A stretch of DNA of 64,000 bases from a virus (lineage: Duplodnaviria > Caudoviricetes): the IMG/VR virus record IMGVR_UViG_3300033463_000079, positions 15,491 to 79,490 of that record; one strand, 5' to 3'. The position numbers and the translations under genes are program-made. The stretch's first letter is position 1, and each line of letters begins with the position of its first letter. Below the pieces are notes generated by a model, which was not told the origin of the DNA, ran no database searches, and worked only from the letters and a program-made list of their open reading frames with translations. Below are positions 14,565 to 58,400 of the stretch, piece after piece.

Positions 14565-15203
14565 ATGGAAAACGGACTTTCTGCGAGCGATGTCGCATTG
14601 ATGAACCGCGACACAGGCTTTGGCGGTGAGGCGTTCATGTGGATTTTCGCACTTCTGATTCTGGCAGGCGGTGGCTTCGGCGGTCTTGGCTATGGCGGTA
14701 ACGCCGTGACACAGGACGCGATGCAGAACGGATTTAACTTCAACGACCTGCAAGACCAGAACCGTGACATTATGAACGCTATCACAGGCGGTACTGCACA
14801 GTCTGTAGCGACGACCAACCAGACATTCCACGATTCTCTGTTTGCCCTCAACGATAAGTATTCGGAACTGGCAAGAGATATTAGTGGCGTGAATATGCAA
14901 CTGCAACAGGTTCTGTCAAACCAGAATGAATGTTGTTGCTCGACCAAAATGGAAATCGCCAACAACAGATATGAGGCGGCACTCAATACTGCCAAAATCA
15001 ATGAAACGACTGTAGCACAGAGCCAGAAGATTCTGGACGCTCTGGCACAGAACAAAATCGAAGCATTACAGGCACAGGTAAACGCTCTTGAACTGCAAAA
15101 CGCCGTGGCAGGGGTGGTAAGATACCCTAACTCATGGGTGTATGACGCAGGCAAAGCACCTTTCTGTACTTGTACCACAACTACGCCGACAACAGGCGCA
15201 TAA
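14565..15203 (+). CDS. Hypothetical protein: Gly-rich hydrophobic N-terminus, long coiled coil, CCC motif
   Basis: WIFALLILAGGGFGGLGYGG, QNECCCST, heptad region; AAGGAG SD. Confidence 0.7.
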   Translation: MENGLSASDVALMNRDTGFGGEAFMWIFALLILAGGGFGGLGYGGNAVTQDAMQNGFNFNDLQDQNRDIMNAITGGTAQSVATTNQTFHDSLFALNDKYSELARDISGVNMQLQQVLSNQNECCCSTKMEIANNRYEAALNTAKINETTVAQSQKILDALAQNKIEALQAQVNALELQNAVAGVVRYPNSWVYDAGKAPFCTCTTTTPTTGA

Positions 15204-19300: not shown

Positions 19301-22300
19301 AAATTCAACACAAAACCAAATGGGATATAGACCATCTAAACGGTGTATCAAAAGAGTATCTCGGAATAGATTTAGAGATAGATAAATATCTCGACGATTT
19401 AACGGGCGTTGAAGCAACGATTAATGGTGAATTTGGCAGACCTCGTGACTTTTCCATTGATGATTATATGGAATGGGACAACCCAGTAACAGGCAAACAT
19501 AATGATAGTACGCCGATTGAACTGTTTGACTACGCAACAGGAGACGAAAGGGGTGACTTCGTAAAAGACTACTCCTTATATAACAAAATCAAGAATCACA
19601 TAAGGGACGAGTACAGATATGATAAATCTCTCGATGCGTATACAAAGAGAGATAACGAGTTTGAACTTCTTGACATTGACGAAAGGGACGAACTTCTTGA
19701 ACTCGCGAGAGATATAGACAACGAAGTTGTAAAAAGATTAACCGAATATTTTGGAACTGCGCGTTATGGCGAGAATGGCATTTACCAAGTCAGACTGAAA
19801 ATGAATAACCCTCTTATCGTGGACTGCGGCGGTAGTTGGTGGAACGACATAGATGGGTCTGCTTTCAAATATTCTGTCGAGGACAAAATCGCGATAGAAA
19901 ACTTCCATGCGTTTGAAGAAGAGTATAAGGAGTATGTTGAAGACGTTATAGAGGACAATATCACAGACGCGGACAATGTTTCCCTCAATGCGCTGTTGGA
20001 CGACGGGAAGTACGAAGAATATTATGAATTCAAAAACGATTTAGAAGATTACCTCATGGAAATTGGACAAATTGTTGATGAAGACGAGTTTGTCGGTAGA
20101 GGAATGTCAAAAGTCTTCAAGACAAACGATGAGTATGACGACGCATACGATGTATTTATTGAAAAGGGCAGAGCCGTTGACAATGATGACAAAACGTACA
20201 ATACGAGATATGTGTCACAGTACGCTCGCAACAATGGCTATGATGGCGTAATATTTAAGGACATTGTTGATACTGGAAACGGCAGATACATTGAAGACGA
20301 TGTATATATTGTTTTTAGCAACGAGCAGATGAAGTCAGCCGACCCCGTGACGTATGATGATAACGGAAATATAATCCCGCCGTCCCGTAGAGGACTTGGA
20401 GACAAGGTAGAGGCTGAAAAGTCACGCTCGTTTGAGAAAAAAGCCCTTGAAAACCACGTAGAAGTACAGTCGGACGGCGCGCTTATGGACGTTGATACTG
20501 GCGTAGTTCTGTATGACCCAAGAGACGGGTGGAAAGACTCTGACTTTGATTGGGAAAAAACGCACGGCATTAGCGAGAAAGAGTATGAAAATTGGCTCTC
20601 TTATAACAATCCACGAAGCAAAAGAGACATGCGCTATTCCAAGTTCGGCGTAAAAGGCGCGACTGGCGAACAAAAGGCTCTTGGCGAACAAGCCGAGCAG
20701 ATGTTCAAAGACGGCGTACCTGTAGACGAAATTTATTACAATACAGGTGGTTGGGTTGTGGATTCCGATGGAAAGGCGAAGATGCGCTTTTCCGACAAGG
20801 ACATGAAACTCAACATCAAAATGAAAAGTCTCAAACCTGCAAAATCCGTGTCGGATATTCAAAAAGCATCTGACGCGTGGGAGGCGGCAGAGGACGCATT
20901 TGACAAGGCAGTTGCAAGAAATGCAGACGATGCGGAACTCGGCAGGCTTCTCGGTAATATTCAAAAGGCAGAAGAGGCTCTCGACATCGCGCAGAATGGC
21001 GTAAAGGAGATTCCGCTCGGTGAACTTATTGAACATAATGAATTGTTCAAGAGATACCCAAAGTTCAAGGACGACATTACAGTCAAATTCACAACAAAAT
21101 CGTATATTGGCGGCGAGGGAATGTTGGTCGATACTGGCGGTGGAACATTCACCATATATGTAAGGCGGAACGGTTTAACGAAAGAAAAACTAAAAGAAAC
21201 ATTGGTGCATGAAGTCCAACACGCTATACAGGACACGGAAGGATTCGCTCGTGGAACAAGCCCAGAAGAGTGGCAACGAATTACGAAAAAAATACTCTCC
21301 GAAATGGACGATGTAGAAAACAGTCTCCCATCTGGATTCACGTTTGAAAAGGACGGTAGCAACTGGGTTATTAAGAATAGCAAAACTGGCTCGACGGCAT
21401 CTGCATCGAAACCAGAAAATGTACGATTTGACTTTTTCAAAGGAATTGACGCAAGAGAACTCCGCGCGAAGTTTAACGAATGGGTTGACCTAAAAAATGA
21501 CCTCGACGCTATGACAACACAAATATCAAACGCTCCAGATAACGTGAGAAGAGAAGTTGCAAAACAAGGCAAGTTCCAATACTCGAACACAAAGGGAGAG
21601 TTTGAATCGCGTAACGCCGAATACGAAATGAATGAGCCTTTAAGCAACATGCGAGGCTATGACGAAGTTGAGGCAAGAGAACGCACAAAAATGAATCGTG
21701 GTCAAAAACCAGATTCAGACGCGTTTGTAAACGAACACGAACTCAAAGTAGAAGACTACGAGAAAAAATACGGCGGCAAGAAAGCCTCCAAGTTCGCCAA
21801 AGAGACTCAAAACGCCAAGACTTCTCGCGAGACTGTAAACGCCACAAAGAAAGAAAAAAAGGCTCTCGAACAAAAACTCTCTGGCAAACTTTCAAAGGAC
21901 AAGAGGGCAGAGGTCGAAGACCAACTTGTTAAACTCGAAGAGCGTCTCGAAAAAGAGACTGCGTTTATGCACCAGTCCAACACCCCTATATACAAAAAAC
22001 GTATAGAGGAGAACCGAAAGGCTATCAAGGAACTTGAGAAAGAACTCAAGAAGACGAAAGACGCTGACGAGATTAAGAAAATCCAAAAGCAGATAACCAA
22101 CAAGGAGCGGTGGATTACCACAAACGAAAACTGGATTAACTGGAAACCAAAGCAGGTGGTTAGCGACGTTCCTGTCAAGGAACTCTCCGATGGCGAGTTG
22201 TCTAAAGAGTACAATTCAATCAACAAGGAACTCAAGAAAGAGCAGGAGTCTATAAGAACAAAGAGACTCCTCGAAGAACGTCGTGACGCTCTCTCAAAAG

Positions 22301-25300
22301 AGGCAGAGAAGAGAGACCTCGACCTGCGTGGCAACCTTGAGAAAGCCGATGAACTTATCAAGGAAAAGAGATTTGGCTATGAAGAAGCCGAAGAACTCAC
22401 CAAGAAGATAAGGGAAATCGACGAGCAGGTTGCGGAACTCGATGCCAAGAAAAAGACAACGGCACGAGTCCACAAAATTGACAGTCTTGAAGCAGAGAGA
22501 AAAAAACTGAATACAAGACTCTCTAACGTCATTGAGAACTCAAAGTCTGTTGTTCCAGAGGGCAAGACTGCGAAAGAAACATTCAACAAAGTCGTTGGCG
22601 GAAATACCCTAAAGGCAAAAGGCGAGGGTAAGATGCTCAACAAGTTCTCCGTACGGAAACTGCTTGACGAAAACGATGGCAGTAAGTGGGGAGCAACGAA
22701 AGACCTCGGCAGAGCGTTCCGCCGTAAGACTGAATCGTCTCTTATCGAGTATGAGTCCACAGGCAAACAACTTATCAAGGACGGTCACAAGGAACTCGGA
22801 CAGGCTCTATTAGACCAAGCAAACAACGTCACCGTTTACAAGAATAAGGCGGCGGCGGCGGTCGAGTCTGCGAGAGCAAGTGCTGACGGGACTAAAATAG
22901 GCAAGTCCCTCAATGATGTCTTCAAGGTAGAGGACAAGAACGGCAAAATCGTCGACCTCTTGTTAGAAGAAAATGCAGAAATGAGACAAGACCTCTCAAA
23001 CTATTTATTCTGCAAACACTCTTTTGCAAGAGAAGAGCAAGGGAAGAAAGTCTTTGGTGTCATCGACGAAGACGGAAAGCCGAAGTGGACAAACGCAAGT
23101 ACCGAGCAGTACATGAAAGAGATAGAAAAAGAATACGGAAAGAAAACCGTCAAGGCATTTGAACGGGAAATCCGCGATTTCATAGACTATCTCAACGAGT
23201 ACAGGCTCGATACGGGCTTAATGAGCAAGGAACTCCTTGACAAATTAAACGACATCTATCCTTATTATATTCCTACCAACAGGGCGGTCGTGAATAAGCC
23301 TCCAAAGGAATACGAACTCCCGAAGAATGTCGCGGAAGTAGAAAACGGAATCAAGAGAGCCGTCGGCGGGGACGCTCCGTTGGAAGACCTCTATACACAG
23401 TTAGTCAAGATGACGATGGCAACTATCCGTTCTGGTGAGCAGAACAAACTGTTAGCCATGTACGCAAAGGCGCACAACATAGAACCGACAAGACTTCCAA
23501 AGGACACTACGGCAGATGATGTGCTTGAGAGTTCTGTAGAAGCGTTTGATTCCGACCATAGAGGCAATTATAAAATACGTTTCTATGACAACGGAGAAGC
23601 AGTCACGATTCCTGTCAACAAGCATGCGGCAAAGGGAATCCGAGAGTTCAACGGACAGGACTACGCGACGCTTATTGAAGTGTCCGCGAAACTTGGAAAA
23701 CTCCTGCACATGCGTGAGTATAAAGGACTCATTACAGACTGGAACTTGGTGTTCGGTGTTCGTAACGGAATGAGAGACGCTCAACAGGCTCTCGTAAACT
23801 CTAAAGATTCTCGTTACTTCACGGCATCAATCCCTCGCGCGAGGGCGGCGGTCGCAAACGAGAACAATGCCTTTAGAGTTCTCTACGACGCAAACGGCGG
23901 AAGATACTCAACTCTGCAACAAATAAACAGGCTCGATGAAATCGGTGCGCTCAATAAAAAGGGTGGCACGGTCGCCAAAGGACTTGAAAAAATCGAGGAC
24001 ATCAACGGCGCAATCGAAATGATGCCTCGTATGTGCGAGTTCATCGGCACTATCCAAAAAGAGGCTGACAATATCCTCGGAAGTAAAGGTATCAAGGAAC
24101 TCAAGCGTGAAATCGAGGCAGAGGCTTCGGCTATCCCAGAGGCAGAGCGGACTGCGTGGATTGAAAATGAGTACGCGCAGAGAATCGTTGACCTTATTAA
24201 AAAGGAAAAGCCAGACATCATCGCAACTGCGATTAGAAACTCTGCTGACGTAACTGTAAACTTCTCAAGAAGTGGCGTTGTGACAAAGGCGTTCAACGCA
24301 GGCTTTGTCCCTTACCTCAATCCATCGGTACAGGGTCTTTCAAAGATGATGCGTATGTTCACGGAGTCAAAGGCTCAAGGATTCGGCAAACTCGCATGTT
24401 TCGGCGCAAAGTTAAGTGTTCTCACGATTGCCCCTGCGATGCTCAACGAGATTCTGTGTAAGGATAATGAGGCTTACCAGAGCATCAATTCAAGAGACAA
24501 AGACAATGCGTTCTTTATCCCGATGTCCCTGTTTGGTGGTGAACCAGACAAGTTCATCAAGATTCCAAAGCCAAGAGAAAACGCGGTATTGGCAGAGCCG
24601 TTTGAATATGGTTTGAGATACTTCATGGACAAGGCGCAGTACGGAACTCTTGACGAATTCAAGCAGATGTTTCTTTCTGCAGAGGCTAATGTCGGTATCG
24701 TGAATGTGTGGGAAGACAATATCGCGTCTCCAATTCTTAATACCATGATGAATAAGACATGGTACGGCGGCGACATTCTTTCCAAACAGGAACTCAAGAA
24801 CGTAGAAAATGACGAGGCTTGGAAGAATTACGACGAGACGACATCTTGGTTCGCGAAAAAGATGGGCAAACTTGCCAACATTTCCCCAAAGAAAGTGGAC
24901 AACATTTTAGATTCGTATACAGGTCTCATTTATGACTTCGGAATCTCGCAGACCTCACAAAAGAATCTAAACGACGTATATTCATCGCCAAAGAACTTCG
25001 TCAAGAACAATCCGTTTGTTCAGCAATTTATGAAAGACGCGGTGTTCTCAAATAAATATGCTACGAAATTCTGGGATAAGGCTGACGAACTCAATGAGGG
25101 GCATAATGGCGACAAAGACACGATAGAATACCGTGAGTACATGGCTAAATATGGCTACGATACATTCACCTACGATTCTGCGATAGCAGGAGTAGATAAC
25201 GACAAGAATATTCCAAAGGAAGAAAAAGTCGAAATCAAACGCGAACTTCGCAAGTGCAAGAACCAACTTCTGCAACGCGCATTAAATGGCGAGGAAGTCA

Positions 25301-26370
25301 AGTATGACCCGATGCAGAGGATAATCAATATCTATAAGCGTCACGGAATCGAAAACGCAACAGATATATGTCTTTCATCGTATGCAGAGGGCGACCATGC
25401 GGACGCGTATAAACACCTTAAACAGTCAAAGGAATACAGGGACGCGACAGACGCAGAAAAGTTAGAACTGCAACGGAAGTTCCTCAAGACCTATAAGGGC
25501 GTAAAGAGAATCGCGAGATTCACAGGAGATAGCGACAAGTTCGTCAATTACTCTACAGTTGAATATGTGTGCGCGAAGAACGGCTATACAGGCGGTCTTA
25601 TTGCCAACATGTACGCGTGGAAGTCTAAAGAGTATGCGGTCGAAAAAGGCTTGAAAGACATGAAGAGGTATATCGACGCGGGATATACTGAAAAGAACTT
25701 CAAGGTCACAATGAGAGCCATGAATCGCGGTGCTGAAAAGTTGGGAGACCCCGACAAGCCTTATGCTTCTAAACTTGAAGATTATAATAAGGCGATGATT
25801 AACGCAGAGAATGGCTATCGTGACGGTGCATATCTCGTTGCTTCTCCGTACATAAAAGACTCGCAAATGAACGCGGCTCGTTGTCTAACAGAGGGACACT
25901 CTGGCGAAGACTTCAAGTGGACTAATAAGCGTGTAAACAAGTTCTGCAAGAAATACGAAATATACGCTGATAAGAACTACAAGTATGACAACGAACAAGT
26001 TGCAAATGCCGTCAAGAAAGAATACGGAGATAAAACGCCAGAAGAACAGGCGGCGGTCTACGTGCTTATAACAGGCGACACAGAGGGTAATCCGTTCGGA
26101 GAAATCGGCGATTATTCCCACAAGAATGATTCTGGACTTCTTGAAGACGAAGAGAAGAAAGGAAAAGGCGGTCGCGGAAGAGGAAGAGGTCGTCGCGGAG
26201 GCGGTGGCGGAGGCAAAGGCTCAAAAGGAACTATGCCGTCAACATCGTCTGGCGCAATCAACGGCAAAGTAACCGACGTATTCGCAGGCTCTAACGGTTC
26301 AAAGGCATCGACACTCAATGATGCATATAGAAAAAAGGTTAGGAAACTGCGCGAACAAATGTATAAATAA
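16399..26370 (+). CDS. Giant polyvalent ejection protein (3323 aa): zincin MPTase, ART-PolyVal, LPD23-like with second HExxH, coiled coil, LPD38-like
   Basis: GHETMH (~18541), FHGT..NPL..GYDG..VFSNEQMKS (19129-20340), HEVQHAIQ..EGFARG (~21208), IKIPKP...NKTWYG..I (24560-24780). Confidence 0.8.
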   Translation: MAEHKIRQKTTTPKKKKPEEDRFGKKGKQQAKKAKAEKTGASKLNKTGNSRADERREGAVRARENPVNKTRGGAQNYIIKDKVQPILTAPTKTVSGALKNAQNTAGQARNQHRGGHVTNVVDKTNRSKTHGASTTVVTTPQTKRNDRLTAKGQVERDKAIKANDQKIQTVADTKAKNDKNGYAYGGKLIKTLDKYNEKVDKALEEGKKKDLEYAAESFSDKKVDIPFYTKYAKGKAEAEAKKALKEGGVTQKKGKENVDNWITETESNWDKSGFKVTDDTVVTEDGKTWGQIKQEAYDQEAARIRFERSKYINQSTNGVGQLSAQDIVKGGIEMGSEFIDYGVPYMATAKGSIKVAEKLMAKAAKAGKTGAKVAPKTEAAIGRLVADGKLTPQAAKKLNTQIAIKSGAKSFSKELVANALQDATIGTAIDLGKGIEQGLQGKDLEKYMKDNAIANLALGIPMSGIAGRAGAKEAKQALAEDIAGSVNKFTNLTREEGFELDNLIKKSNDKNATLGNFEAQRLSELQDKALGGDSAVVNSKGKIEVNKAETTVEGLSREDAKEYIKLRAKAASGQIQPHELGNLAGLQKKVEQAYKQTEAKAQKTINISNKRITSAMQEDAEMAVRFFERTGDKARLKQANDVLERAKKATAEKNAALETNIDKMKDITKGNYRWVDSKEMEALTGDGRIGGYYDEATGEIVVNRDSPQAYQTIIGHETMHMLKAANREGYDKLANMLADYVKELDEYDSLVAEVKQAYPELVAKGDADALDEELVSEMLGRYVFGEDDTFIKKLAGEDPTTLQKIINYIKKLFANNDNAELREQFAKLEQTALEQIRDAHPEVIARENARKKWSRIVDSSGERVDVADRQISARVIDQCYLDAVKCGDLDLAQRIVDQHLLSQGFGIPAFHGTTRFGFTTVDMGKLDDGASIFAARSPAVAHTYTGSYRSSRPNVKKIGNPKEPLKNKIQHKTKWDIDHLNGVSKEYLGIDLEIDKYLDDLTGVEATINGEFGRPRDFSIDDYMEWDNPVTGKHNDSTPIELFDYATGDERGDFVKDYSLYNKIKNHIRDEYRYDKSLDAYTKRDNEFELLDIDERDELLELARDIDNEVVKRLTEYFGTARYGENGIYQVRLKMNNPLIVDCGGSWWNDIDGSAFKYSVEDKIAIENFHAFEEEYKEYVEDVIEDNITDADNVSLNALLDDGKYEEYYEFKNDLEDYLMEIGQIVDEDEFVGRGMSKVFKTNDEYDDAYDVFIEKGRAVDNDDKTYNTRYVSQYARNNGYDGVIFKDIVDTGNGRYIEDDVYIVFSNEQMKSADPVTYDDNGNIIPPSRRGLGDKVEAEKSRSFEKKALENHVEVQSDGALMDVDTGVVLYDPRDGWKDSDFDWEKTHGISEKEYENWLSYNNPRSKRDMRYSKFGVKGATGEQKALGEQAEQMFKDGVPVDEIYYNTGGWVVDSDGKAKMRFSDKDMKLNIKMKSLKPAKSVSDIQKASDAWEAAEDAFDKAVARNADDAELGRLLGNIQKAEEALDIAQNGVKEIPLGELIEHNELFKRYPKFKDDITVKFTTKSYIGGEGMLVDTGGGTFTIYVRRNGLTKEKLKETLVHEVQHAIQDTEGFARGTSPEEWQRITKKILSEMDDVENSLPSGFTFEKDGSNWVIKNSKTGSTASASKPENVRFDFFKGIDARELRAKFNEWVDLKNDLDAMTTQISNAPDNVRREVAKQGKFQYSNTKGEFESRNAEYEMNEPLSNMRGYDEVEARERTKMNRGQKPDSDAFVNEHELKVEDYEKKYGGKKASKFAKETQNAKTSRETVNATKKEKKALEQKLSGKLSKDKRAEVEDQLVKLEERLEKETAFMHQSNTPIYKKRIEENRKAIKELEKELKKTKDADEIKKIQKQITNKERWITTNENWINWKPKQVVSDVPVKELSDGELSKEYNSINKELKKEQESIRTKRLLEERRDALSKEAEKRDLDLRGNLEKADELIKEKRFGYEEAEELTKKIREIDEQVAELDAKKKTTARVHKIDSLEAERKKLNTRLSNVIENSKSVVPEGKTAKETFNKVVGGNTLKAKGEGKMLNKFSVRKLLDENDGSKWGATKDLGRAFRRKTESSLIEYESTGKQLIKDGHKELGQALLDQANNVTVYKNKAAAAVESARASADGTKIGKSLNDVFKVEDKNGKIVDLLLEENAEMRQDLSNYLFCKHSFAREEQGKKVFGVIDEDGKPKWTNASTEQYMKEIEKEYGKKTVKAFEREIRDFIDYLNEYRLDTGLMSKELLDKLNDIYPYYIPTNRAVVNKPPKEYELPKNVAEVENGIKRAVGGDAPLEDLYTQLVKMTMATIRSGEQNKLLAMYAKAHNIEPTRLPKDTTADDVLESSVEAFDSDHRGNYKIRFYDNGEAVTIPVNKHAAKGIREFNGQDYATLIEVSAKLGKLLHMREYKGLITDWNLVFGVRNGMRDAQQALVNSKDSRYFTASIPRARAAVANENNAFRVLYDANGGRYSTLQQINRLDEIGALNKKGGTVAKGLEKIEDINGAIEMMPRMCEFIGTIQKEADNILGSKGIKELKREIEAEASAIPEAERTAWIENEYAQRIVDLIKKEKPDIIATAIRNSADVTVNFSRSGVVTKAFNAGFVPYLNPSVQGLSKMMRMFTESKAQGFGKLACFGAKLSVLTIAPAMLNEILCKDNEAYQSINSRDKDNAFFIPMSLFGGEPDKFIKIPKPRENAVLAEPFEYGLRYFMDKAQYGTLDEFKQMFLSAEANVGIVNVWEDNIASPILNTMMNKTWYGGDILSKQELKNVENDEAWKNYDETTSWFAKKMGKLANISPKKVDNILDSYTGLIYDFGISQTSQKNLNDVYSSPKNFVKNNPFVQQFMKDAVFSNKYATKFWDKADELNEGHNGDKDTIEYREYMAKYGYDTFTYDSAIAGVDNDKNIPKEEKVEIKRELRKCKNQLLQRALNGEEVKYDPMQRIINIYKRHGIENATDICLSSYAEGDHADAYKHLKQSKEYRDATDAEKLELQRKFLKTYKGVKRIARFTGDSDKFVNYSTVEYVCAKNGYTGGLIANMYAWKSKEYAVEKGLKDMKRYIDAGYTEKNFKVTMRAMNRGAEKLGDPDKPYASKLEDYNKAMINAENGYRDGAYLVASPYIKDSQMNAARCLTEGHSGEDFKWTNKRVNKFCKKYEIYADKNYKYDNEQVANAVKKEYGDKTPEEQAAVYVLITGDTEGNPFGEIGDYSHKNDSGLLEDEEKKGKGGRGRGRGRRGGGGGGKGSKGTMPSTSSGAINGKVTDVFAGSNGSKASTLNDAYRKKVRKLREQMYK

Positions 26371-37579: not shown

Positions 37580-38506
37580 ATGAATAATTTAAGAATGCGT
37601 TTCGATCTGTTCGACGATGGCGGAGACGGAATCGGAACGGCAGCCAGTGAATTCGCATCATCCTTGGGGATCGATGTGAGTGATCTTACTTCGCAGCCAG
37701 ACGATACTGCACCACAGGTGGTATATGGCAAGGACGGAGAAGATAGTCCAGTCGGCTCGGACGAACCGGAACAGGAACCGGCATCAAATCCTGAAGAAGA
37801 GTTCGCTAAACTGATAGGCAAAGGCGGAAAGTACGAAGAGGCATATGCCAACCGTGTGCAGGAGACGATCCAGAATCGTTTCAAGAATGCGACAGACTGG
37901 GAAGGTGTGACGAGTGCATACGAGCAGGCGACAGCTCCATTGTACATGAAGTACGGCCTGGAAGTAGGCGACGTGGAAGGACTGCAGAAGGCAATCGAGA
38001 CGGACGACGATCTGTACGCAAGACTTGCCGAGCAGGACGGTGTAACGACAGACAAATACAGAGAGAACGTCAAGCTGCGGCTCGATGCACAACGTGGCAG
38101 AGAAATGCAGGAAGAGTTCGCAAAAGAGAGACAGAGACGTCAGATGTACGAGAAGTGGGATGCTGAAGCGGAAGAGCTGAAAGAGGCATTCCCGAACTTT
38201 GATCTCATGGCAGAACTACAGAATCCGCAGTTCGCAGCGCTCCTGGATACCGGCAACTTCGGTGTGAAGGATGCGTTCATGGCATGTCACGTCAACGACA
38301 TTCTCGAAGGTAACCAGGAGTACACCAGGAAGCAGACAAGGGAAGACGTAGCACAGAAGCTCGCATCGAATGCCAGAAGGCCGGTGGAGAATGCGATGTC
38401 GCACAATCCTGCGGTCGTAAGGAAAGCAGATCCATCCAAACTAACCGATGAAGACATGGACAAGATCTTCGAGATCGTCCGGAACGGCGGCACGGTTTCG
38501 TTCTAA
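37580..38506 (+). CDS. Capsid scaffolding protein
   Basis: Acidic coiled coil directly before the capsid; L27-like leader MRFDLF. Confidence 0.75.
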   Translation: MNNLRMRFDLFDDGGDGIGTAASEFASSLGIDVSDLTSQPDDTAPQVVYGKDGEDSPVGSDEPEQEPASNPEEEFAKLIGKGGKYEEAYANRVQETIQNRFKNATDWEGVTSAYEQATAPLYMKYGLEVGDVEGLQKAIETDDDLYARLAEQDGVTTDKYRENVKLRLDAQRGREMQEEFAKERQRRQMYEKWDAEAEELKEAFPNFDLMAELQNPQFAALLDTGNFGVKDAFMACHVNDILEGNQEYTRKQTREDVAQKLASNARRPVENAMSHNPAVVRKADPSKLTDEDMDKIFEIVRNGGTVSF

Positions 38507-38541: not shown

Positions 38542-39609
38542 ATGAATGATTTCATCATGAATTTCCATCTGTTTGACGACGATGGCAGAGGCACAAGTCC
38601 TCTCAATGTAAACTGGACAGGTCAGACAGGCGCAGGCCAGGATCTGTCTCCGGAAATGAAGACGTTCTATGACAGAGCGCTTCTGAAATGTGCAGAACCA
38701 AACCTGATCCATGATCAGTTTGGACAGAAGAGGCCAATCCCAAAGGGAAGCGGCAAGACGATTGAGTTCCGTAAGTTCTCATCACTGCCGAAGGCTCTCA
38801 CTCCACTGACTGAAGGTGTAACTCCGATCGGTCAGAAATACAGCGTAACAGCCATCACTGCCACTGTACAGCAGTATGGTGCTTACATCGCAGTATCCGA
38901 CATGCTGCAGCTCACTGCATTCGATAACAACATGGCAGAGATCACAAGAATCCTTGGATCCCAGGCCGGCAGAACTTCCGACACTATCACGAGAGAAGTC
39001 CTGGCAGCAGGAACCAATGTATTCTACATCGGCACGAGTGCAGACGAACCATCAGACATCGGAGCTAACGACGTACTGACTGTGGACGCTATCAAGAAGG
39101 CCGTCACTTTCCTGAAGAGAAACAATGCGACTCCGATCCAGGGCGGCGACTTCGTTGCAATCGTACATCCTGATACCGTATACGATCTGTGGAACGATCA
39201 GAAGTGGGAAGAAGCATCCAAGTATGCCGGATCCACACAGATCTTCAACGGCGAGGTAGGCAGACTGTACGGATGCAGATTTGTTGAAACCACTGAAGCC
39301 AAGATCTGGCCTGCCAATGATGCACACGGCAACACTGTTGACGACTACGGCACACTGGTACTGGCGGCAGACGCATTCGGTGTAACATCCATCAACAACG
39401 GCGGAATCGAGACCATCACGAAGCAGCTTGGCAGTGGCGGTACAGCAGATCCGCTCAACCAGAGAGCTACCATCGGATGGAAACTGAACAAGGTAGCAAA
39501 GATCCTTGCCAATGAGTTCATGGTAAGAATCGAGCACACGACCAAGTTCGCAAGTCCGATCGAAGAGGAAGGCGGATCATCCGGCGGATCCTCAAGCTCA
39601 AGCTCATAG
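38542..39609 (+). CDS. Major capsid protein, N4-gp56 family, with C-terminal GGSSGGSSSSSS tail
   Basis: EMKTFYDRALL..AEPNLIHDQFGQKRPIP..GKTIEFRKF..LTEGVTP; DPLNQRATIGWK. Confidence 0.9.
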   Translation: MNDFIMNFHLFDDDGRGTSPLNVNWTGQTGAGQDLSPEMKTFYDRALLKCAEPNLIHDQFGQKRPIPKGSGKTIEFRKFSSLPKALTPLTEGVTPIGQKYSVTAITATVQQYGAYIAVSDMLQLTAFDNNMAEITRILGSQAGRTSDTITREVLAAGTNVFYIGTSADEPSDIGANDVLTVDAIKKAVTFLKRNNATPIQGGDFVAIVHPDTVYDLWNDQKWEEASKYAGSTQIFNGEVGRLYGCRFVETTEAKIWPANDAHGNTVDDYGTLVLAADAFGVTSINNGGIETITKQLGSGGTADPLNQRATIGWKLNKVAKILANEFMVRIEHTTKFASPIEEEGGSSGGSSSSSS

Positions 39610-39614
39610 TTCAT

Positions 39615-40214
39615 ATGAAAATACTGATTGCAGTTCCAACTTTTGAAAACATCCAACCGGAAGTGTTCAAAGCAATTTATGACCAGGACAAGTGTGGTCA
39701 TGATGTGGACTTTGATTTCATGAAGGGGTACGACGTCGCATGGGCGAGGAGCAAGATTGCGAAGAAAGCGGTGGAGTGCGGATACGACTACGTTATGATG
39801 GTCGATTCCGACACAGTGATACCGGCAGACACGTTGACGAACTTCCTCGATCCAGAGGCCGACATCGTGCTTGGATGTTGTCCGAGGAAGAACAGCAAGA
39901 CCAGAATGTCCGCACTGTGTACACTGAAGGACAATCCTACAGGCACAGGCTATCACGTCAGTTTGAGCTATGATGCGCTGCAAGGCGAGGAGCGGATCAA
40001 ACTGGTGGTAGGCGGATTCGCATGTGCATTGATCGACACGGACGTGTTCCGGAACATGAAGTATCCGTATTTCAGGTACGTGCAGTACGGAAACGGCTCG
40101 ATACTTTCAGAGGACTTCTACTTCTGTGAGCAGGCAGGACTGGCAGGATACGATGTGTGGGCGGATCCGAGAGTCAAGTGCGGACATCTGGCACGGTATT
40201 ATCAGTATGAGTAA
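39615..40214 (+). CDS. Glycosyltransferase, short GT-A fold
   Basis: ILIAVPT, ARSKIA, YDYVMMVDSD (DXD), GFACALI, SEDFYFC, DPRVKCGH. Confidence 0.82.
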   Translation: MKILIAVPTFENIQPEVFKAIYDQDKCGHDVDFDFMKGYDVAWARSKIAKKAVECGYDYVMMVDSDTVIPADTLTNFLDPEADIVLGCCPRKNSKTRMSALCTLKDNPTGTGYHVSLSYDALQGEERIKLVVGGFACALIDTDVFRNMKYPYFRYVQYGNGSILSEDFYFCEQAGLAGYDVWADPRVKCGHLARYYQYE

Positions 40215-40220
40215 AGGAGA

Positions 40221-40472
40221 ATGAACATGGCAACAAAAAAGAAGGCTGCGAAGAAGCCACAAAAGAAGACAGTGACGGTGTACATTCCGTTCGTAGAAGG
40301 CGAGGAAGACGAGCTGACGATCGGGATCAACGGAGTAATGTACAAAGTGAAACGAGGCGAGGAAGTAGAAGTTCCGAGAGCGGTGGCAGTCGTCATCCGG
40401 AATTCAAACCTTCAGGCCAAGGTCGCAAAGGAATACTGTGAATCCGTCAGAAACGTGGCTATTGCAGAGTAA
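40221..40472 (+). CDS. Small head-associated protein
   Basis: IGINGVMYKVKRGEEVEVP motif typical downstream of N4-gp56 capsids. Confidence 0.6.
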   Translation: MNMATKKKAAKKPQKKTVTVYIPFVEGEEDELTIGINGVMYKVKRGEEVEVPRAVAVVIRNSNLQAKVAKEYCESVRNVAIAE

Positions 40473-40479
40473 CAAAGAA

Positions 40480-40516
40480 TGCGGAAGGTGGTGGACACAC
40501 TGTCTTCCGCAGTTTT
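40480..40516 (+). terminator. Intrinsic terminator
   Basis: GCGGAAG...CTTCCGC stem then AGTTTTT. Confidence 0.7.
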
Positions 40517-49300: not shown

Positions 49301-49618
49301 ATGTACACTGGAACAACACCAACACATTCATTTAAGCTGCCGTTTGATACGAGTACGTTGAAGGCCATCCAGGTCATCTACAAGCAGGGCGGCATGAAGA
49401 TGACGAAGCTGTACAAGAACAACAAACTGCCAAGCGGCATGTCAATTGACGGTGCGTATGTTTACGTTAGACTGACGGAGATGGAGACGAATGCGTTCAG
49501 TCCGGATAGTCTGGCACTGTGCCAGATCCGTGTACGCACGGAAGAGGACAATGTTATACCGTCCAAGATAAAACAGATCAAAGTGTACGATTCACTTGAT
49601 ACAGAGGTACTGATATGA
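49301..49618 (+). CDS. BppU N-terminal-like tail protein
   Basis: GTTPTHSFKLPFD...YKQG...LTEMET..F....QIRV. Confidence 0.6.
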   Translation: MYTGTTPTHSFKLPFDTSTLKAIQVIYKQGGMKMTKLYKNNKLPSGMSIDGAYVYVRLTEMETNAFSPDSLALCQIRVRTEEDNVIPSKIKQIKVYDSLDTEVLI

Positions 49619-51435
49619 CACAGGAATTTGACGTAGTATTCAGCGAGATAAATGAATCGTTCGACTGCACGTTTGAGTCCGGAGACGAGACGTTCGTCAT
49701 GGAGATGGGCAGCGAGTTCAGGCCGGATCAGTACGAAGGATACACGGAGATCACTCCGTCAGAGCAGACACAGGTTCTCTACACGTCAGAGAAGTATGTT
49801 AAAAACAACATCGTCGTGAAGCCTGTGCCCGGCGGATACATTCTGCCGGAAGGAACAAAAGAGATCGACGAGAACGGCACATACGATATCAAACGGTATG
49901 CAGAGGTCGATGTAGATGTTCCGATTCCGCCTGGCTATATCATTCCGTCCGGGACGCTTGAGATCACAGAGAACGACGACTACGACATAACCGAATATGC
50001 AGGAGTGTCAGTCGATGTTCCGATTCCACCAGGGTATATCGTGCCGAGTGGCACAAAACAGATCACGTCGATCGGCACAGGCATAGACGTAACCGAGTAT
50101 GCGGACGTGGACGTTGCGATACCGGACGCTGTCATCGGACAGGCCGAGTTATCCGTGTCGCCACAGACTCCGACCATCAACAGTTCGACCGGACTCGTCA
50201 CTGCTAATGTAGGAACGACGACCGGAGAGATCAAACCGATCACGACTGCAGGATACGTCACTCCGACTACAGCAATACCGTACAAGAGGACAGGTGGATC
50301 CAAAACGCTGCAGCTCGATACGCAGGCCGGAGCGACCATCACTCCAACCACATCGCAGCAGACAGCGGTAGCAGCAGGAAAGTATACTCTGGGCGACGTC
50401 AAGGTCGGTGCGATACCAAGTCAGTATATCGTACCATCCGGCACGAAGCAGATCACAGCCAATGGAACTAACATCGACGTGAAGCAGTACGAATACGCAG
50501 ACGTTGCGGTGCCTGCTTCAACACCTACGCTGCAGACGAAGAGCAAGACATATACTCCGACCACGTCGCAGCAGACGGAAACCGTGCAGGCCGACAGCGG
50601 CTACGACGGACTGGAAAAGGTCAACGTCACTGTCAGTGCTGTGGCAACCGGAACGGCAGGTACACCAACAGCTTCAAAAGGAACTGTCAGTAACCATGCC
50701 ATAGCTGTCACTCCGTCGGTAACCAACACGACAGGATATATCACTGGTGGTACGAAGACCGGCACGGCAGTAAGCGTATCCGCAAGTGAAGTGGTAAGCG
50801 GAACGTATACGGTCAGTTCAAGTGGTACGAAGGATGTAACCAACTATGCGAGTGCATCCATCCAGGCAGGAACTGCAGGAACACCTGCTCTCACAGTAAG
50901 TGCGGTAGAAAACCATTCCAAAACCATAAGGTCGTCAGTAATCAATTCAACAGGGTGGATCACAGGCGGAACGGTTTCTGGAGCATCTACCACTGTATCG
51001 GCAAGTGATTTGGTAAGTGGCACTCTGTCGATCACGTCAAACGGAACTGGTATCGACGTTACGAACTACGAGAAGGTAGACGTCGCTGTGCCGGGTGGTG
51101 GTACATCAAAGAACGTACAGATCGCACAGAGCACAACGAGAGCGACGTCATCGACATATGTAAAAGTGTGCGGAGATATTACTGTATCAAAGGCAGGAAC
51201 TTACGATATCTACTGGACGTACTTCAGATCGAGTACATCCGGAACGTGGGGTTCGCAGCTTTATAAGAACGGTGTGGCACAGGGTTCTGCACAGTCTACG
51301 TTCACGAACCATGTATGCAACGTCCATCTGTCGAATGTATCTCTCGCAGCAAACGACACGGTATCCGTGTATGCACGGTCAAGAGGATCCAACTACTACG
51401 GATATGTCGGACAGCTTACCATCATAGAGGCATAA
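49615..51435 (+). CDS. Tail fibre / receptor-binding protein
   Basis: P.GYI.PSGT..IT.N..YD.TEYA.V.V repeats; C-terminal tip 83% identical to 9494..9820. Confidence 0.78.
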   Translation: MTQEFDVVFSEINESFDCTFESGDETFVMEMGSEFRPDQYEGYTEITPSEQTQVLYTSEKYVKNNIVVKPVPGGYILPEGTKEIDENGTYDIKRYAEVDVDVPIPPGYIIPSGTLEITENDDYDITEYAGVSVDVPIPPGYIVPSGTKQITSIGTGIDVTEYADVDVAIPDAVIGQAELSVSPQTPTINSSTGLVTANVGTTTGEIKPITTAGYVTPTTAIPYKRTGGSKTLQLDTQAGATITPTTSQQTAVAAGKYTLGDVKVGAIPSQYIVPSGTKQITANGTNIDVKQYEYADVAVPASTPTLQTKSKTYTPTTSQQTETVQADSGYDGLEKVNVTVSAVATGTAGTPTASKGTVSNHAIAVTPSVTNTTGYITGGTKTGTAVSVSASEVVSGTYTVSSSGTKDVTNYASASIQAGTAGTPALTVSAVENHSKTIRSSVINSTGWITGGTVSGASTTVSASDLVSGTLSITSNGTGIDVTNYEKVDVAVPGGGTSKNVQIAQSTTRATSSTYVKVCGDITVSKAGTYDIYWTYFRSSTSGTWGSQLYKNGVAQGSAQSTFTNHVCNVHLSNVSLAANDTVSVYARSRGSNYYGYVGQLTIIEA

Positions 51436-52418: not shown

Positions 52419-55400
52419 ATGAGCACAAAGACACAAGCACAGAAAGCGTACAACAGATACAAGCAGGCACAGGCCAACCAGAAAAAAAAGAAGGTCGTCA
52501 ACACGCAGACACGGCAGCAGCAGAAAATCAACAAGGCCGTAACGAAAAGAGCGACCGGCAACTACAGTGCGTTCAAGGGTGTCAATCCTGGAAGGACTTC
52601 TGAAGGATCTGTTCAGAACACGACGGTCAAGAGATACACGCAGACTGAAGCTCCGGCAAGACGGAATCAGCAGGAGATCCAGAGACAGAGAAGGGAGCAT
52701 CAGACGCAGACGACCGGGCAGAGGATGAACCAGGAAGATCAGAGCAGATTCAAGAACCTTACCGTAGGCGCTCTAGAACAGTCGGTAGGATCTGCTCGTA
52801 AAGCGTTCTCCGGGTTCATGTCAGGTGTCACGGACACAAGAGCAAAGTCTGACACCTACGGCGGAGTCCAGGCGCATCGTAATGGTACGCAGCAGTACAT
52901 GACACGTCGTGAGGACAGACTGTCTCCGGAACAACTGCAGTCAAAAGAGTCCGGGATTCAGAAGAGCAAGGCCACATCAAAGGCGCTCTCTGAAGCACAG
53001 GACTATTATACAAAACAGGAAAGCAAGGCCGCATCCAAACAGATCGCACGAGGCACAGAGAAGATCGAGAAGGGTAAAGAAGGACTCGGCGCTGTCGGCA
53101 GATTTGGTGCGGATCTATATACAGGTGCAGTGCAGCTCGGTGCGGATATCGGCATCGGTGCATTGACAGGATCAGCTCTGCTTCCAATGGGAGTCAGAGC
53201 TTTTGGTGGTGCGGTCGATGAGGCGGAACAGGCCGGTGCATCGTGGAAGAAACAGATGATGTACGGTGCGACTACAGCAGGCATCGAGCTTGGATCAGAG
53301 AAACTGTTCAACGTAGGCGCTGCACTGAATAAGGCATACGGTGCAGGTGTTGGAGATAAGCTCGTCGAGAAGCTAACGAAGAAGGTCGGCAAGTCTGCAC
53401 TCAAGGGCGGATTGTCTGAAGTCGGTGCTGCGGCGCTCACGGAAGGACTTGAGGAAATGGTGGCTGAAGGACTTGAACCTATGGTGGCAAATGCGATCTA
53501 TGCAAATGCTATCGGTGGGGATGCGGTACAGACATCACTGCTCAATGATCCGACGCAGGCAGGACTCAACATACTCCGGGCAGGTGGCATCGGTGCGGCG
53601 CTCGGTGCTCCTCTTGGCGGTGCAGGTGTCGTCATGCAGAACCGGCAAGGCAAGAAGATTTCCGAGAATGCACAGAACATCTACGGCGAGGACGGAGTCA
53701 AAGAGATGGCACGTCAGGCCAGAGAGTCCGAGGACGAAGAAGACGCTGCGTTCGCACAGGCCGTGTACAATGCGATCAACGAAGGCAAGGGTGTGGCTAA
53801 CATCCAGGTGGCGAGGCTCCAGGGAGTTCTGAATTCACAGAAGGAGAGAGATGCCAAGAGGACTGCAGAAGCATATAACGTAGCAGAGAAGACCATAGCA
53901 GATAACAACTACAGCATTCCGAGACAGGCGGCAAACGCTAAAGCATCGGAGTCTGTTGACGTGGCAAGACGTGCGATCGCAGAACAGATCCCGGCAGATG
54001 TTGAGATGTCCGAAGCAGAGGCGGATAAGATCGTCACGACTGCAGCGAGAATCGGATCCGGTATTGCCGGAGAGAGCGACATCCGTGAGGCACTGTCGTC
54101 CGCAGAGTCCATCACAGTAATGGAAGCAGTGACCGGCCTCGATCTGGGCGGCAAGAGCAAGTCCGTGCAGCACGACATGCTGATCCAGTATGCAGCGCAG
54201 CAGTATGTTGACGCAGCGCAGAGACAGACAGAGTACGACAACAGCACACTGCGGAATGCGTACAAGACAATCAAGGAGAAGGATCTGGGTGTCGGCGGAC
54301 AGACTGCATTCGATAAGATTTTTGAGGGCGAGGATGTGCGTGGCCTTGCCGACGGATCCACAGATTTCAGAGGCGACGACATCAACGACGTACATAACAA
54401 GATGTATACGTTCGAGGCATTTTACCGGGCAGGAACTGCGGACATGACTCTTGAGGAGATCCGGCAGAAAGATAATCCGGTGTTTGCATCTCTGACTCCA
54501 AGACAGCAGGAAGACGCATACATCGCAGGACGTAACGATGCACTGGCGGAACAGAATGCTGCATATCTGAAGGACGTGCAGGTCGGACGCAAATCACAGA
54601 AGGCCAAGACGAAAGTCCGTCCAGGACATGTATCACTCGCAAGATTGAGCGACGAGAACAAACAGATCCTCACGCAGAGCAGACCACTGTTCGAGGCACT
54701 GGCTAAAGCTCTCGGCATCGAGATCGAGTTCCGGGATGAGATCACAAACGTAAATGGAGAGGTCATCGAGGAAGGTGTCAACGGACACTACCAGGATGGC
54801 AAGATCACGATCTCAATGGACAACGACAAGGCGGACATGGAAAAAGTTCCTCTCGCCGCTATTGCGTATGTCTTTGAACACGAAGTGACACACCACATGA
54901 AGGTGTTTGCTCCGGCGGAGTTCTTCAGATTCAAACAGTTCGTGAAGAATAAGATGATGACGATGGAGTCCTCTGACGGCAACTTCGCAAACAGATACGA
55001 AGAGGAGATCGCAAAGAAGAGAAGACAGTACGGCAACGAGGACGAAGGCCTTCTCTTTGAAGAGATCCTGGCGGATGCGAGTATCGAGTTCATCCAGGAC
55101 GAAGAGTTCTGCAAGGAGATCTGCGAGCAGGATGCAGACACGGCACATGCGATCATCAAGGCGCTGCGTAATCTCATGGACAAGATCCGTGAGATCATGG
55201 CAAACATAGTCCTCACAGATTCACAGAGACAGACACTGTTCTCTGAACTTGACATACTCAAGGACGCAGAGCAGATGTGGCTTGCCGGTATCCGTGTGGC
55301 TGCGGAGAGACGGAATGCTGTAGGCGAGACAAGTAACCGTGCATCACTTTCCATCAAGTCGATACCGTCAATGGATAATAAACTCGTTGTCGTGGTGGAC

Positions 55401-58400
55401 ACAGATCAACATATCTTTGACGGTGTAGACGAAAGAGACTATGCAAAGGTCGCAAAAGCATACATGAAAAAGAGGTTCCAGGGCAAGGTCGTTGGAACGG
55501 TCAATCCTGCTTATTTCAATTCCAATAGTGTTGGAGAGTATGCATATCCTGCAAAAGACAATCCACCAGACATAGACAGAGCAAAGATGAAAGCTGCTCC
55601 GGAATTAGAGAACATGCTTGACATCGCAGGGAAACCAGAACACATACACTATGATAAGAATAATCCTGATCCAAATCATCCAGACAGGTATAAAGGCGAT
55701 TATACAGAAGACTGGGATATTTATTCCGGTGTTACATTCGTCCTTGACGACAGATTTTTTGAGGGAACGATTAACCTTCAGTACAACAAAATTGGAAGGC
55801 TCTTCAAAGATTTAACACAAATAAAAGATATCACTGACAGCTTGCTGGATGCCAGCGGCAATACGCCTCTGCTCCAGACCGTCAGTGATTTCTCTACAGA
55901 TATTGTAGAGGATTCCGACGCAGAAGTCAAGAAGTCTATGAAGGAATTGGTCACATTATCTGATCAGAGAATCGACAATCTGATCGACGAGTATGCGATT
56001 CCAGGGAACACGACATCGAACTATACACAGGCATGGATCACGTCTATCAATCCGAGAGATTTTCTCAAACTGACTATATCAGACGAGGCGCTTGCAAGAT
56101 GGTATGAACCAGAAGCTGCAAACAATGATCAACCAGTCAGAGAACTTGAACCGGAAGATCTCAAGGCCAAGGGGAAGTATGATCCACTGATGCCTTATCT
56201 TCGCATACAGACACGAGACTCGCATAGTGTTGTCGGACATGAAGGCAGACACAGAATGAAAGCGCTCATGGATGCAGGATTCGAGGACGTGCCTGTCGTT
56301 GTCGTGGACTGGAACGAAGCCACAAAGAACACGAAACAGATGGAGGACGAGATGGATCTGTGGTCTCAGGATCACGGCAACGGCCCGGTCAATTCAGATA
56401 ACGACATCGGTTACCGTGTTGACGTATATGATCTCATTCCTATCAATGAGAAGAACCGTGCAGAGATAGAGAGGATGTACGGTGGGGATACACAGGTTCA
56501 GTTCTCTCGCAAATATACTCCGGAAGAACAGCAGGAACACAGAGACGCACTCCTGGAGACTTGTAAGGAACTGTATGGATCAGAGACCACAGAGAACTAT
56601 CACGAGTCCGGATACATTCTGCCAGACGGCAAGATGCCGAAGATGGGCGACATGGGCATCCGAGGAGAAGACCATCTCGTGGCTGCGGTCGGATATGGAA
56701 TGGAGTTCGATGGCATTGATATGTTCATGCGTGAAGGAAACATCAGACTCGTTCCGGAGACGAATGGATTCCAGATCACGACAGAACCTACGAAGGAACA
56801 GTACGATACTATCGGCAAGGTCGTAGACAGCATGTACGACGGTGTATATTCTCCGTTCACTGAAATCAGAATAGACTTCACGGATGACGACGGATTCGTC
56901 AGAGATACGATGGCATTCAACGGAACGGACAGTGATGCGATTGTCGGATCCATTAAGGCACACTTCGCAGGCGGAACGGTTACTCCTATGAGACAGTTCC
57001 TGTCACGTAAAGACAGTGAAGGAAGATATCTGTCAGAAGGCCAGATGGAATACTTCAAGGATTCAAAGGCCAGGGATGCATACGGACATCTGATTCCGGT
57101 ATATCACAGTTCAGATGCGGAGTTCACGGAGTTCGACGAGGATATGCGTGGCGAGAATACTGGATCACTTAATACTGCATACGGATTCTTCACTTCTCCA
57201 AACGAGGAGTTTTCAAAACAGTTCGGCAAGAACACAAAGAAGATGTATGCGAACATCACGAATCCTTTGATCCATCCGTCGAACTGTCATCTGAAGTATC
57301 CTGGCAGAGAGGATGAAATCACGAAGACGTGGTTTGAAACTGTTGATCCATACCAGATTCCATTCCTTGAGGAGATCGTAGAGAGTGGAGACTATGACAG
57401 TCTATATGATGCGTACATGGGTGCGTTTATGTGGGAAGCATTCGACTACGCAGATGATGAGAGAGAGACGGTCGAGAATGCCGGATTTGACGGAATGGAA
57501 ATCATCGAAGGGGAGAGAGACTACGTGGATGGCGTACAGATTAAACCGTATGCGATTTCGTCGTTTGTCGTGTTCAATTCCAATCAATTGAAGGACGTAG
57601 ACAATCTCGATCCGACTGACAATCCGGACATTCTGTTATCCAGGAAGGACTCCGAAGGGAACGAACTGTCTGAAGGACAAGCAGAATACTTCAAGGATTC
57701 CAAAGTCAGAGACGAGGACGGAAACCTTCTCCGCATGTATCACGGAACGGACGAGGAGTTCACTGTATTCAAACCGAATAAATATGTGGAAGAACGGAAC
57801 GGACTGTCCAGAATCAAGGGATACTTTTCAACGAGTGAAGACTATTCCGGCATATATGGAGAGACGTCTGCATACTATCTCAACATAGAGAATCCTCTGT
57901 TCATTCCGGACGAAGGCAAGACGTTGGCAGAATGGCAGACATGGTTTGCGGAACAAGGTGTGGACGGTGTCGTGTTTGATTCAGGAATCGAGGAAGACAC
58001 TGTCAAGGGATATGTTAAGGAAGACGGCACAAGACTCTATTCCTTATGGGAACTGTTTGATGCCGGATCATATTGGCATGGAGACGGAAATCTTACAGAA
58101 AAGATCGAGAATGCAGGACATGACGGCATCTATTGGGAAGAAGGCGAGGACTGGAATCTTGGTGGCGGCAGATCCGTTGAAGGGAGACAACTGGCATACA
58201 TGCCATTCAATGAGAATGCCATCAAGAGATTAGACAATCTGAATCCTTCTAGCAGCAATGACATTAGATATTCCATGAAGGAAGTCAGAGGCAACAAGAC
58301 GCAGCAGAAGAGAGATCGTGGAGAAAAACTGACAAAGAGTCAGTTCTATAGGATCTATTCTGTTCACAAGCTCAACCTTCGTGGACTTGATAATCTTCAG

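Follow-up and report, generated by a model that had tools for sequence, protein, structure and literature searches.

In the 64,000-nt stretch of viral DNA analysed here (the window; bases 15491-79490 of the 79,490-bp IMG/VR record IMGVR_UViG_3300033463_000079), the gene for an N4-gp56-type major capsid protein ends in a serine-rich tail and is followed almost immediately by the gene for a very small glycosyltransferase of the GT-A fold. We consider it likely that the two genes form a tag-plus-transferase cassette in which the enzyme O-glycosylates the serines of the capsid tail. A first-pass annotation of the same DNA had proposed that this podophage may glycosylate its capsid on a dedicated serine tail, and three lines of comparative evidence now support that reading: tail and enzyme were inserted jointly, tags and enzyme co-occur across phages, and the kind of tag matches the enzyme clade. 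The host is probably a member of the Firmicutes, judging only by the relatives of the phage.

The capsid tail and the enzyme of the window

The capsid protein matches the NCBIfam model TIGR04387 ("N4-gp56 family major capsid protein") over residues 33-332 with 290.8 bits (E 1.4e-86), which passes the curated equivalog cutoff of 60, and it matches phrog_1357 with an E value of 3.8e-83. Its AlphaFold model (predicted local distance difference test, pLDDT, 76.8) has an HK97-type fold closest to that of phage N4, whose capsid (9e99) was the top Foldseek match in the PDB (E 9e-14). The chain ends in ...VRIEHTTKFASPIEEEGGSSGGSSSSSS, followed by a TAG stop codon. A lineage-specific extension starts near residue 340 (PIEEE...); the tail lies past the end of the TIGR04387 profile at residue 332, and the model shows residues 334-355 as devoid of secondary structure, with a pLDDT of about 46. 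The first-pass annotation had described an N4-gp56 capsid ending in a serine tail with mixed codons, and indeed the tail holds eight serine codons of three kinds (four tca, two tcc and two agc). It had also taken this mixture as a sign of selection at the protein level, and here only the first half of the argument stands. The DNA of the tail is itself repetitive, reading ggcggatcatcc / ggcggatcctca and then agctca agctca, with 6- and 12-nt repeats; therefore, slippage could have made the tail, and mixed codons alone are no proof of selection. We rejected the codon argument for this reason and relied on comparison instead.

The enzyme matches phrog_1574, a family listed in PHROGs as "unknown function", over residues 55-194 (E 1.6e-16), and a model built from 76 homologues (pLDDT 93.9) shows a plain GT-A fold. 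VIA-align returned 107 PDB representatives at Z >= 8, and the top matches listed were all GT-A enzymes. A197 of Sulfolobus turreted icosahedral virus (STIV) ranked first (Z 19.2, root-mean-square deviation 2.0 Å over 161 residues, 19% identity), followed by Mnn9 (Z 17.0), Mimivirus R699 (16.9) and LH3/ColGalT1 (16.8), with TarP, TarS and SpsA at about 14. Foldseek placed COLGALT1, a collagen galactosyltransferase of family GT25 (E 5e-9), and A197 (E 1e-8) at the top of its PDB ranking, in which the protein-glycosylating enzymes COLGALT1, LH3 and the GalNAc-transferases all stood high and the leading matches were again GT-A enzymes throughout. D64 and D66 of the DxD motif are invariant among the 76 homologues, at least 90% of which also have S65; together with the model, this bears out the earlier call of a GT-A gene with a DXD motif. 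The invariant E166-D167 pair may contribute the catalytic base, by analogy with GT-A enzymes in general. As for sequence profiles, the enzyme missed the Pfam gathering thresholds (PF13632, a family of GT2 type, 17.5 bits with 27 needed; PF03407, 19.1 bits with 22 needed), while the NCBIfam scan and a search of PDB sequences with the enzyme profile gave no match; some homologues have precomputed matches to PF00535 or PF13641. The GT25 family itself (PF01755) was not among the Pfam matches of the enzyme at E <= 0.01, even though COLGALT1 heads the Foldseek list.

The capsid stop codon and the start of the enzyme gene are separated by only 5 nt. The ATG at 39615 has no in-frame start upstream, and homologues share the start MKILIAVPTFE. 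A search of the 20 nt before this start revealed no Shine-Dalgarno motif, whereas such a motif precedes 16 of the 20 genes encoded in the same half of the window, so that the gene does begin, as first described, 5 nt past the capsid stop and lacks a Shine-Dalgarno motif of its own. On the upstream side, a homologue of the gene in the scaffolding position lies at an equal offset from the capsid gene in 75 relatives. On the downstream side, the homologue of p83 starts at a median of about 58 nt past the capsid stop in 56 enzyme-less relatives, compared with 612 nt in the window. Gene order is thus kept on both flanks, and the difference in p83 spacing implies that tail and enzyme constitute one insertion of about 0.6 kb between the capsid core and p83. 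The window is therefore a clean natural experiment, with a single insertion in an otherwise syntenic backbone. A consensus scan found no terminator-like hairpin between the capsid gene and the end of p83; because the first one lies only past p83, the scaffolding-position, capsid, enzyme and p83 genes look like one late transcription unit (Table 1).

The comparison within the capsid family is consistent with this picture. We examined 80 IMG/VR loci and one GenBank contig that encode capsids 50-75% identical to that of the window and have readable flanks. The enzyme was found within 4 kb of the capsid gene in none of these 81 relatives, and all 81 capsids end about 10-12 residues past VRIE[HST], nearly always in ...AN, and have no tail. 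Among the 119 best capsid homologues from a collection of 5.8 billion proteins, 104 end in AN and 117 have no tail. The possibility raised with the original prediction, that homologous capsids keep the serine tail regardless of the glycosyltransferase, is thus not what we observed, and the co-occurrence test suggested for N4-gp56 phages spoke for the prediction, with the tail absent where the enzyme is absent. The terminal asparagine of ...A-N, common to 104/119 of the nearest homologues and to nearly all of the 81 loci, is lost in the enzyme-bearing lineage.

Altogether, about 200 capsid relatives were compared, and a glycine/serine (G/S) tail was seen only in two of them (P0123 and P0242). 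In P0123, which at 92% identity is the closest relative, the G/S tail is about equally long and differs in order (GGGSGGSGGSSGSSS / ...FASPIEGGGSGGSGGSSGSSS), and the tail of P0242 is identical to it; between this tail and that of the window, composition is conserved and sequence is not. The two capsids are reported on ENA contigs of 4,113 and 4,302 bp, as are two enzyme copies of 84% identity (P0253 and P0004), and capsids and enzymes very probably share these contigs. Relatives at 88-89% identity have another short extension, ...ASPF..GDGQYS.

Table 1. Positions of the features discussed in the text, numbered from the first base of the window
Feature	Position	Strand	Basis
Putative scaffolding-position gene, 308 amino acids (aa), first of the capsid transcription unit	37580..38506	+	phrog_13908, E 2.6e-54
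Major capsid protein, N4-gp56 family, 355 aa	38542..39609	+	TIGR04387, phrog_1357, fold match to N4 capsid 9e99
Capsid C-terminal tail GGSSGGSSSSSS, residues 344-355, proposed O-glycosylation acceptor	39571..39606	+	Sequence, model, relatives
Gap ttcat, 5 nt, capsid stop to enzyme start, no Shine-Dalgarno motif	39610..39614	+	Sequence
Minimal GT-A glycosyltransferase, 199 aa, phrog_1574 family	39615..40214	+	PHROG profile, AlphaFold model, Foldseek, VIA-align
DxD motif D64-S65-D66, expected metal and nucleotide-sugar site	39804..39812	+	76-homologue alignment
Invariant E166-D167 pair, candidate catalytic base region	40110..40115	+	76-homologue alignment
Invariant H191	40185-40187	+	76-homologue alignment
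p83 gene, 83 aa, next after the capsid gene in enzyme-less relatives	40221..40472	+	phrog_15239
Terminator-like hairpin, 14-bp stem then T run	40480..40511	+	Consensus scan only
First part of window: GATC 0, AGCT 0, CCGG 0, GGCC 0; guanine plus cytosine (GC) 45.2%	1-33000		
Second part of window: GATC 281, AGCT 97, CCGG 163, GGCC 60; GC 50.2%	33001-64000		

Tags and enzymes in other phages

A profile scan of IMG/VR with the enzyme yielded 80 further loci, whose enzymes are 40-62% identical to that of the window. We counted a protein as tagged when at least three of its last 12 residues were serine or threonine and at least 11 were G, S, T, A, E or Q, with genes called on the plus strand. By this measure, 44 of 82 enzyme-bearing loci are tagged (55 of 972 open reading frames, ORFs) compared with none of 160 enzyme-less control loci (0 of 1,730 ORFs), which gives a Fisher p of 8e-26, uncorrected for relatedness. 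In many loci, a head protein is encoded just upstream of the enzyme, its gene ending 2-15 nt before, or one gene farther off, with tags such as GATGATGATGA, GETGETGET, GGTTGGTT or ASGGSGSGSAS. Siphophage-type loci have a similar tag, for instance SSSSSSSSSSSGGN or SASGGSSASS, on the major tail protein, which is encoded 4-6 genes downstream. Relative to the enzyme gene, tags are found at positions -1 or -2 and +4 to +6; the podophage of the window has no tail tube, while the siphophage relatives of its cassette tag both capsid and tail tube.

At least eight virion protein families carry G/S/T tags beside the enzyme. They include major head proteins of phrog_10/PF05065, phrog_544, phrog_909, phrog_29/Phage_cap_E and phrog_212, and major tail proteins of phrog_117 and phrog_885. 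The contrast seen for the N4-gp56 capsids recurs in an HK97-type family, in which 79 relatives (49-68% identity) of the tagged capsid of one locus (L147) have neither tag nor enzyme. Thus, a phage-encoded glycosyltransferase, serines or threonines at the C-terminus of a major capsid protein and the co-occurrence of tag and enzyme, all of which would be expected of virion O-glycosylation of the mycobacteriophage type, were found together.

The kind of tag also differs between branches of the enzyme family. A quick maximum-likelihood tree placed the window enzyme in a supported clade of 15 loci, of which six are Ser-tagged, none is Thr-tagged and nine are untagged, while the sister clade of 55 comprises 37 Thr-tagged, 1 Ser-tagged and 17 untagged loci. 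The clade of the window thus goes with Ser tags and its sister with Gly-x-Thr tags. Tag chemistry, in other words, follows the enzyme clade, as would be expected if the tags were the substrates. The enzyme nearest to that of the window in the tree (L085) is encoded after an HK97-type capsid of an unrelated kind, which has a Ser tag at its end. In the untagged loci, the sites used by the enzyme may be short or internal, or its acceptor may be a different one. We considered whether the Gly-x-Thr tails could be collagen triple helices and do not favour this idea, given that they have only 3-6 triplets and that the tail of the window is not Gly-X-Y.

In many loci of the Thr-tag clade (for example, L107:4054-5004 and L159:2140-2835), the enzyme overlaps, through ATGA, a TagB/F-like CDP-glycerol glycerophosphotransferase (PF04464, E 2.8e-28) or a GT8 protein (PF01501). 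These partners hint at teichoic-acid-like or longer glycans on the tags; the window has neither a TagB/F-like (PF04464) nor a GT8 partner gene. Among isolate and curated phage records, the best match (41% identity) comes from a predicted archaeal virus, Methanobacteriales virus vir323 (L001; BK063679.1, 4992-7131), in which two proteins annotated as tail proteins, both with collagen-like GDTGEKG repeats, come after the enzyme.

The family is large, with 243 clusters at 50% identity for E <= 1e-30 and 4,403 for E <= 1e-10. Fused forms also exist, in which the partners are GT8, GT2, GT1, FkbM-type or other methyltransferase domains. None of the fusions found joins the enzyme to a structural protein, and we dropped the notion of "Rosetta stone" evidence, since the partners are only other sugar or methyl transferases. 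A scan of genome and metagenome contigs returned only distant relatives of at most 34% identity, in a collection where near-identical records may be omitted. Copies 94-96.5% identical to the window enzyme (the P0002 cluster, with P0248 at 96.5%, P0246 and P0251) are found on contigs of 44.5 and 38.3 kb, and none of the 120 best capsid homologues is reported on contigs of either size. The enzyme may therefore have moved recently between phages with different capsids, as these contig sizes weakly suggest.

On balance, we lean slightly towards the view that portable cassettes of a tag and a minimal GT-A enzyme form a large, horizontally mobile family. Its clades would be matched to their tags (Ser-rich for that of the window, (Gly-Ala/Glu-Thr)n for its sister), and the enzyme would recognise a short, transferable C-terminal tag. 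In phages of gut and rumen, the cassette would have been grafted independently onto at least six families of head proteins and two of tail-tube proteins, and in some cases GT8, TagF-like or methyltransferase enzymes would have been added.

Mechanism, alternatives and the composition of the record

If the cassette works as we propose, the enzyme would be made from a late, highly expressed transcript shared with the capsid, and its translation would probably be coupled to that of the capsid by re-initiation past the capsid stop codon. In the cytoplasm, with a divalent metal bound at its DSD motif, it would transfer sugar from a nucleotide-sugar of the host to serines of the disordered GGSSGGSSSSSS tail in O-linkage. 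Every subunit of the capsid would be modified covalently in this way, so that a dense layer of sugars would cover the finished head and might serve in shielding, stability or adhesion.

Several points weigh against capsid glycosylation. The support for it is comparative and not chemical, and the co-occurrence counts carry no correction for relatedness. The structural neighbours include TarP and TarS as well as polysaccharide synthases, and a predicted GT-A fold leaves the acceptor unfixed. Some loci in the clade of the window, such as L084, have no tag by our measure, and others have only very short Ser/Thr ends. The repetitive DNA of the tail could stem from slippage, we infer rather than observe that the tail points outward from the head, and the link between capsid and enzyme in the closest relative is drawn only from the equal lengths of ENA contigs.

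Other acceptors also have to be weighed. The enzyme could be a moron that modifies a host surface polymer, either wall teichoic acid or a polysaccharide, as prophage TarP does, and thereby blocks superinfection or alters receptors, while the serine tail would be an unrelated flexible or hydrophilic extension. TarP, TarS, RmlT and polysaccharide synthases do stand among the structural neighbours (Z 13-14), the enzyme does lie beside a TagB/F-type glycerophosphotransferase (PF04464) in other phages, and some enzyme-bearing loci lack a clear tag. Nevertheless, we regard this explanation as unlikely, as it accounts neither for the finding of tags solely with the enzyme (44/82 versus 0/160 loci) nor for the way in which tag chemistry tracks the enzyme clade. 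Furthermore, the gene is part of the late capsid unit, with neither a promoter nor a Shine-Dalgarno motif to itself, and the 199-aa enzyme, which aligns with about 200 of the 312-558 residues of TarP and TarS, has none of their acceptor-binding or oligomerisation domains.

It is also conceivable that the tail arose neutrally, through the insertion itself or through microsatellite slippage, in which case it would be no substrate and the enzyme would in truth act on an internal site or on a different protein of the virion or phage. The persistence of a rearranged G/S tail in the 92% relative makes this quite improbable, and so does the independent origin of equivalent tails on at least eight unrelated head and tail families, always beside the enzyme, while the 1,730 control ORFs contain no such tail. 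What speaks for a neutral tail is the 6- and 12-nt repeats in its DNA, the different extension (...GDGQYS) of the 88-89% relatives and the existence of clade members such as L084 that have no long tag. Finally, phage glycosyltransferases often act on DNA (PMC12619734), but glycosylation of hypermodified bases to evade restriction is highly improbable here, given that the gene lies in a structural module by capsid or tail genes in 82/82 loci and not with nucleotide metabolism, that its neighbours are sugar enzymes (GT8, TagB/F-type glycerophosphotransferase) and its fusion partners GT8, GT1, GT2 and methyltransferase domains, and that complete relatives of about 42 kb manage without the enzyme. 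The replication module of the capsid's phage lies outside the record and might include base-modification genes. Glycosylation of the capsid tail remains the most likely reading.

The window itself appears to be composite. Its two parts differ in composition (Table 1), and each has its own structural module; the phage of the first part strongly avoids four 4-bp palindromes. The relatives of the capsid's phage are contigs of about 41-44 kb, and the 79.5-kb record is probably two phages joined, either as a chimeric assembly or as a recombinant. The local finding of tail and enzyme is unaffected by this. The only strong similarity between the two halves is a tail-fibre C-terminal domain: fibre-like proteins at 7526-9820 and 49615-51435 share their last 109 or so residues (9494-9820 and 51109-51435) at 83% amino acid and 77% DNA identity, which suggests a shared receptor or host. 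Each half also has one giant ORF (16399-26370, 3,323 aa; 52419-64000, more than 3,860 aa and cut off by the end of the record). In the half without the capsid gene discussed here, a 212-aa protein (14565-15203, plus strand) has a Thr-rich C-terminus, ...CTCTTTTPTTGA, and no further homologue of the enzyme family is present in the record.

Comparison with known systems

Among characterised enzymes, the best structural match, STIV A197 (PDB 2c0n), is also a conceptual parallel: it is virus-encoded, has 197 residues compared with 199 and has no extra domains. A197 is an essential viral GT-A enzyme; the major capsid protein of its virus, B345, is glycosylated, and A197 has been proposed to be responsible (PMC10551542). 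It differs in that it shares only 19% identity with the window enzyme, belongs to an archaeal non-tailed virus and has not been described as using a C-terminal tag. A second group of similar enzymes consists of COLGALT1/GLT25D1 (GT25), the glycosyltransferase domain of LH3 and the polypeptide GalNAc-transferases, which were top Foldseek matches in the PDB (E 5e-9 to 1e-5). Such collagen- and mucin-type O-glycosyltransferases act on hydroxyls in repetitive, disordered or Gly-X-Y segments, and gp110 of mycobacteriophage Che8 is also assigned to GT25 by Pfam; however, they are eukaryotic, multi-domain and only 10-15% identical to the window enzyme. TarP of Staphylococcus aureus prophages is, like the enzyme studied here, a phage-borne GT-A protein of the Firmicutes (Z 14.0). 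In contrast, it is a multi-domain chain of 312 residues whose acceptor is a cell-wall polymer, whereas the gene in the window is embedded in a late capsid unit and linked to protein tags. TarP is expressed from a lysogenic-conversion locus.

To our knowledge, covalent sugar coats of phage particles have been demonstrated chemically only for mycobacteriophages. According to later accounts of that work, Che8, Corndog and Myrna encode enzymes that attach glycans to their capsid and tail-tube subunits at the C-terminal end (Freeman et al. 2023, Cell Host Microbe 31:1216, cited in PMC12619734, PMC12363180 and PMC11256854), and two of these accounts state that the glycans shield the particles from antibodies (PMC12363180, PMC11256854). 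The likeness lies in phage-encoded glycosyltransferases and C-terminal sites on both capsid and tail tube (PMC12619734, PMC12363180), as the relatives of the cassette likewise tag both proteins. In Che8, the capsid ends in ...NKTGS and the tail tube in ...QYSDGS; in its genome (L256, NC_004680), both the major capsid gene (5051-5872) and the major tail gene (7613-8422) thus end in ...GS. The ...GDGQYS end of the 88-89% relatives of the window capsid resembles that of the Che8 tail tube. The Che8 enzymes are encoded at the far right end of the genome, gp108 being a GT2 and methyltransferase fusion, gp109 GT2-like and gp110 a Pfam GT25 protein, and the fused forms of our enzyme family similarly carry sugar methyltransferase domains.

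The enzymes themselves are different. We found no detectable sequence similarity between the window enzyme and gp108, gp109 or gp110 (BLASTP E 28; hhalign probability at most 2%, and 0.1% for gp110, a single-sequence template), and no Mycobacterium phage was among the 104 phage records matched by tblastn. The arrangement differs as well, since some 50 kb separate the Che8 enzymes from the gene of the capsid, whereas the single minimal enzyme of the window abuts the gene that it would serve. Moreover, Che8 has a short ...GS end where the window has a long G/S run, and the window derives from an uncultured, gut-type podophage with a probable Firmicutes host. The likeness to the mycobacteriophage system would therefore be one of logic and function, built here with a different, minimal enzyme.

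Thus, the same logic seems to recur in a different and very small enzyme family: a C-terminal tag on the virion proteins present in the greatest numbers, and an enzyme gene beside theirs. The enzyme family spans many phage lineages of gut and rumen and, if our reading is true, virion glycosylation would be common well outside the actinobacteriophages. Should the chemistry be confirmed, particle glycosylation would become a general phage trait with a bearing on persistence, adhesion to mucus or fibre and immunogenicity in animal guts, a large PHROG of unknown function would gain an annotation, and a compact pair of enzyme and peptide tag would be available for study.

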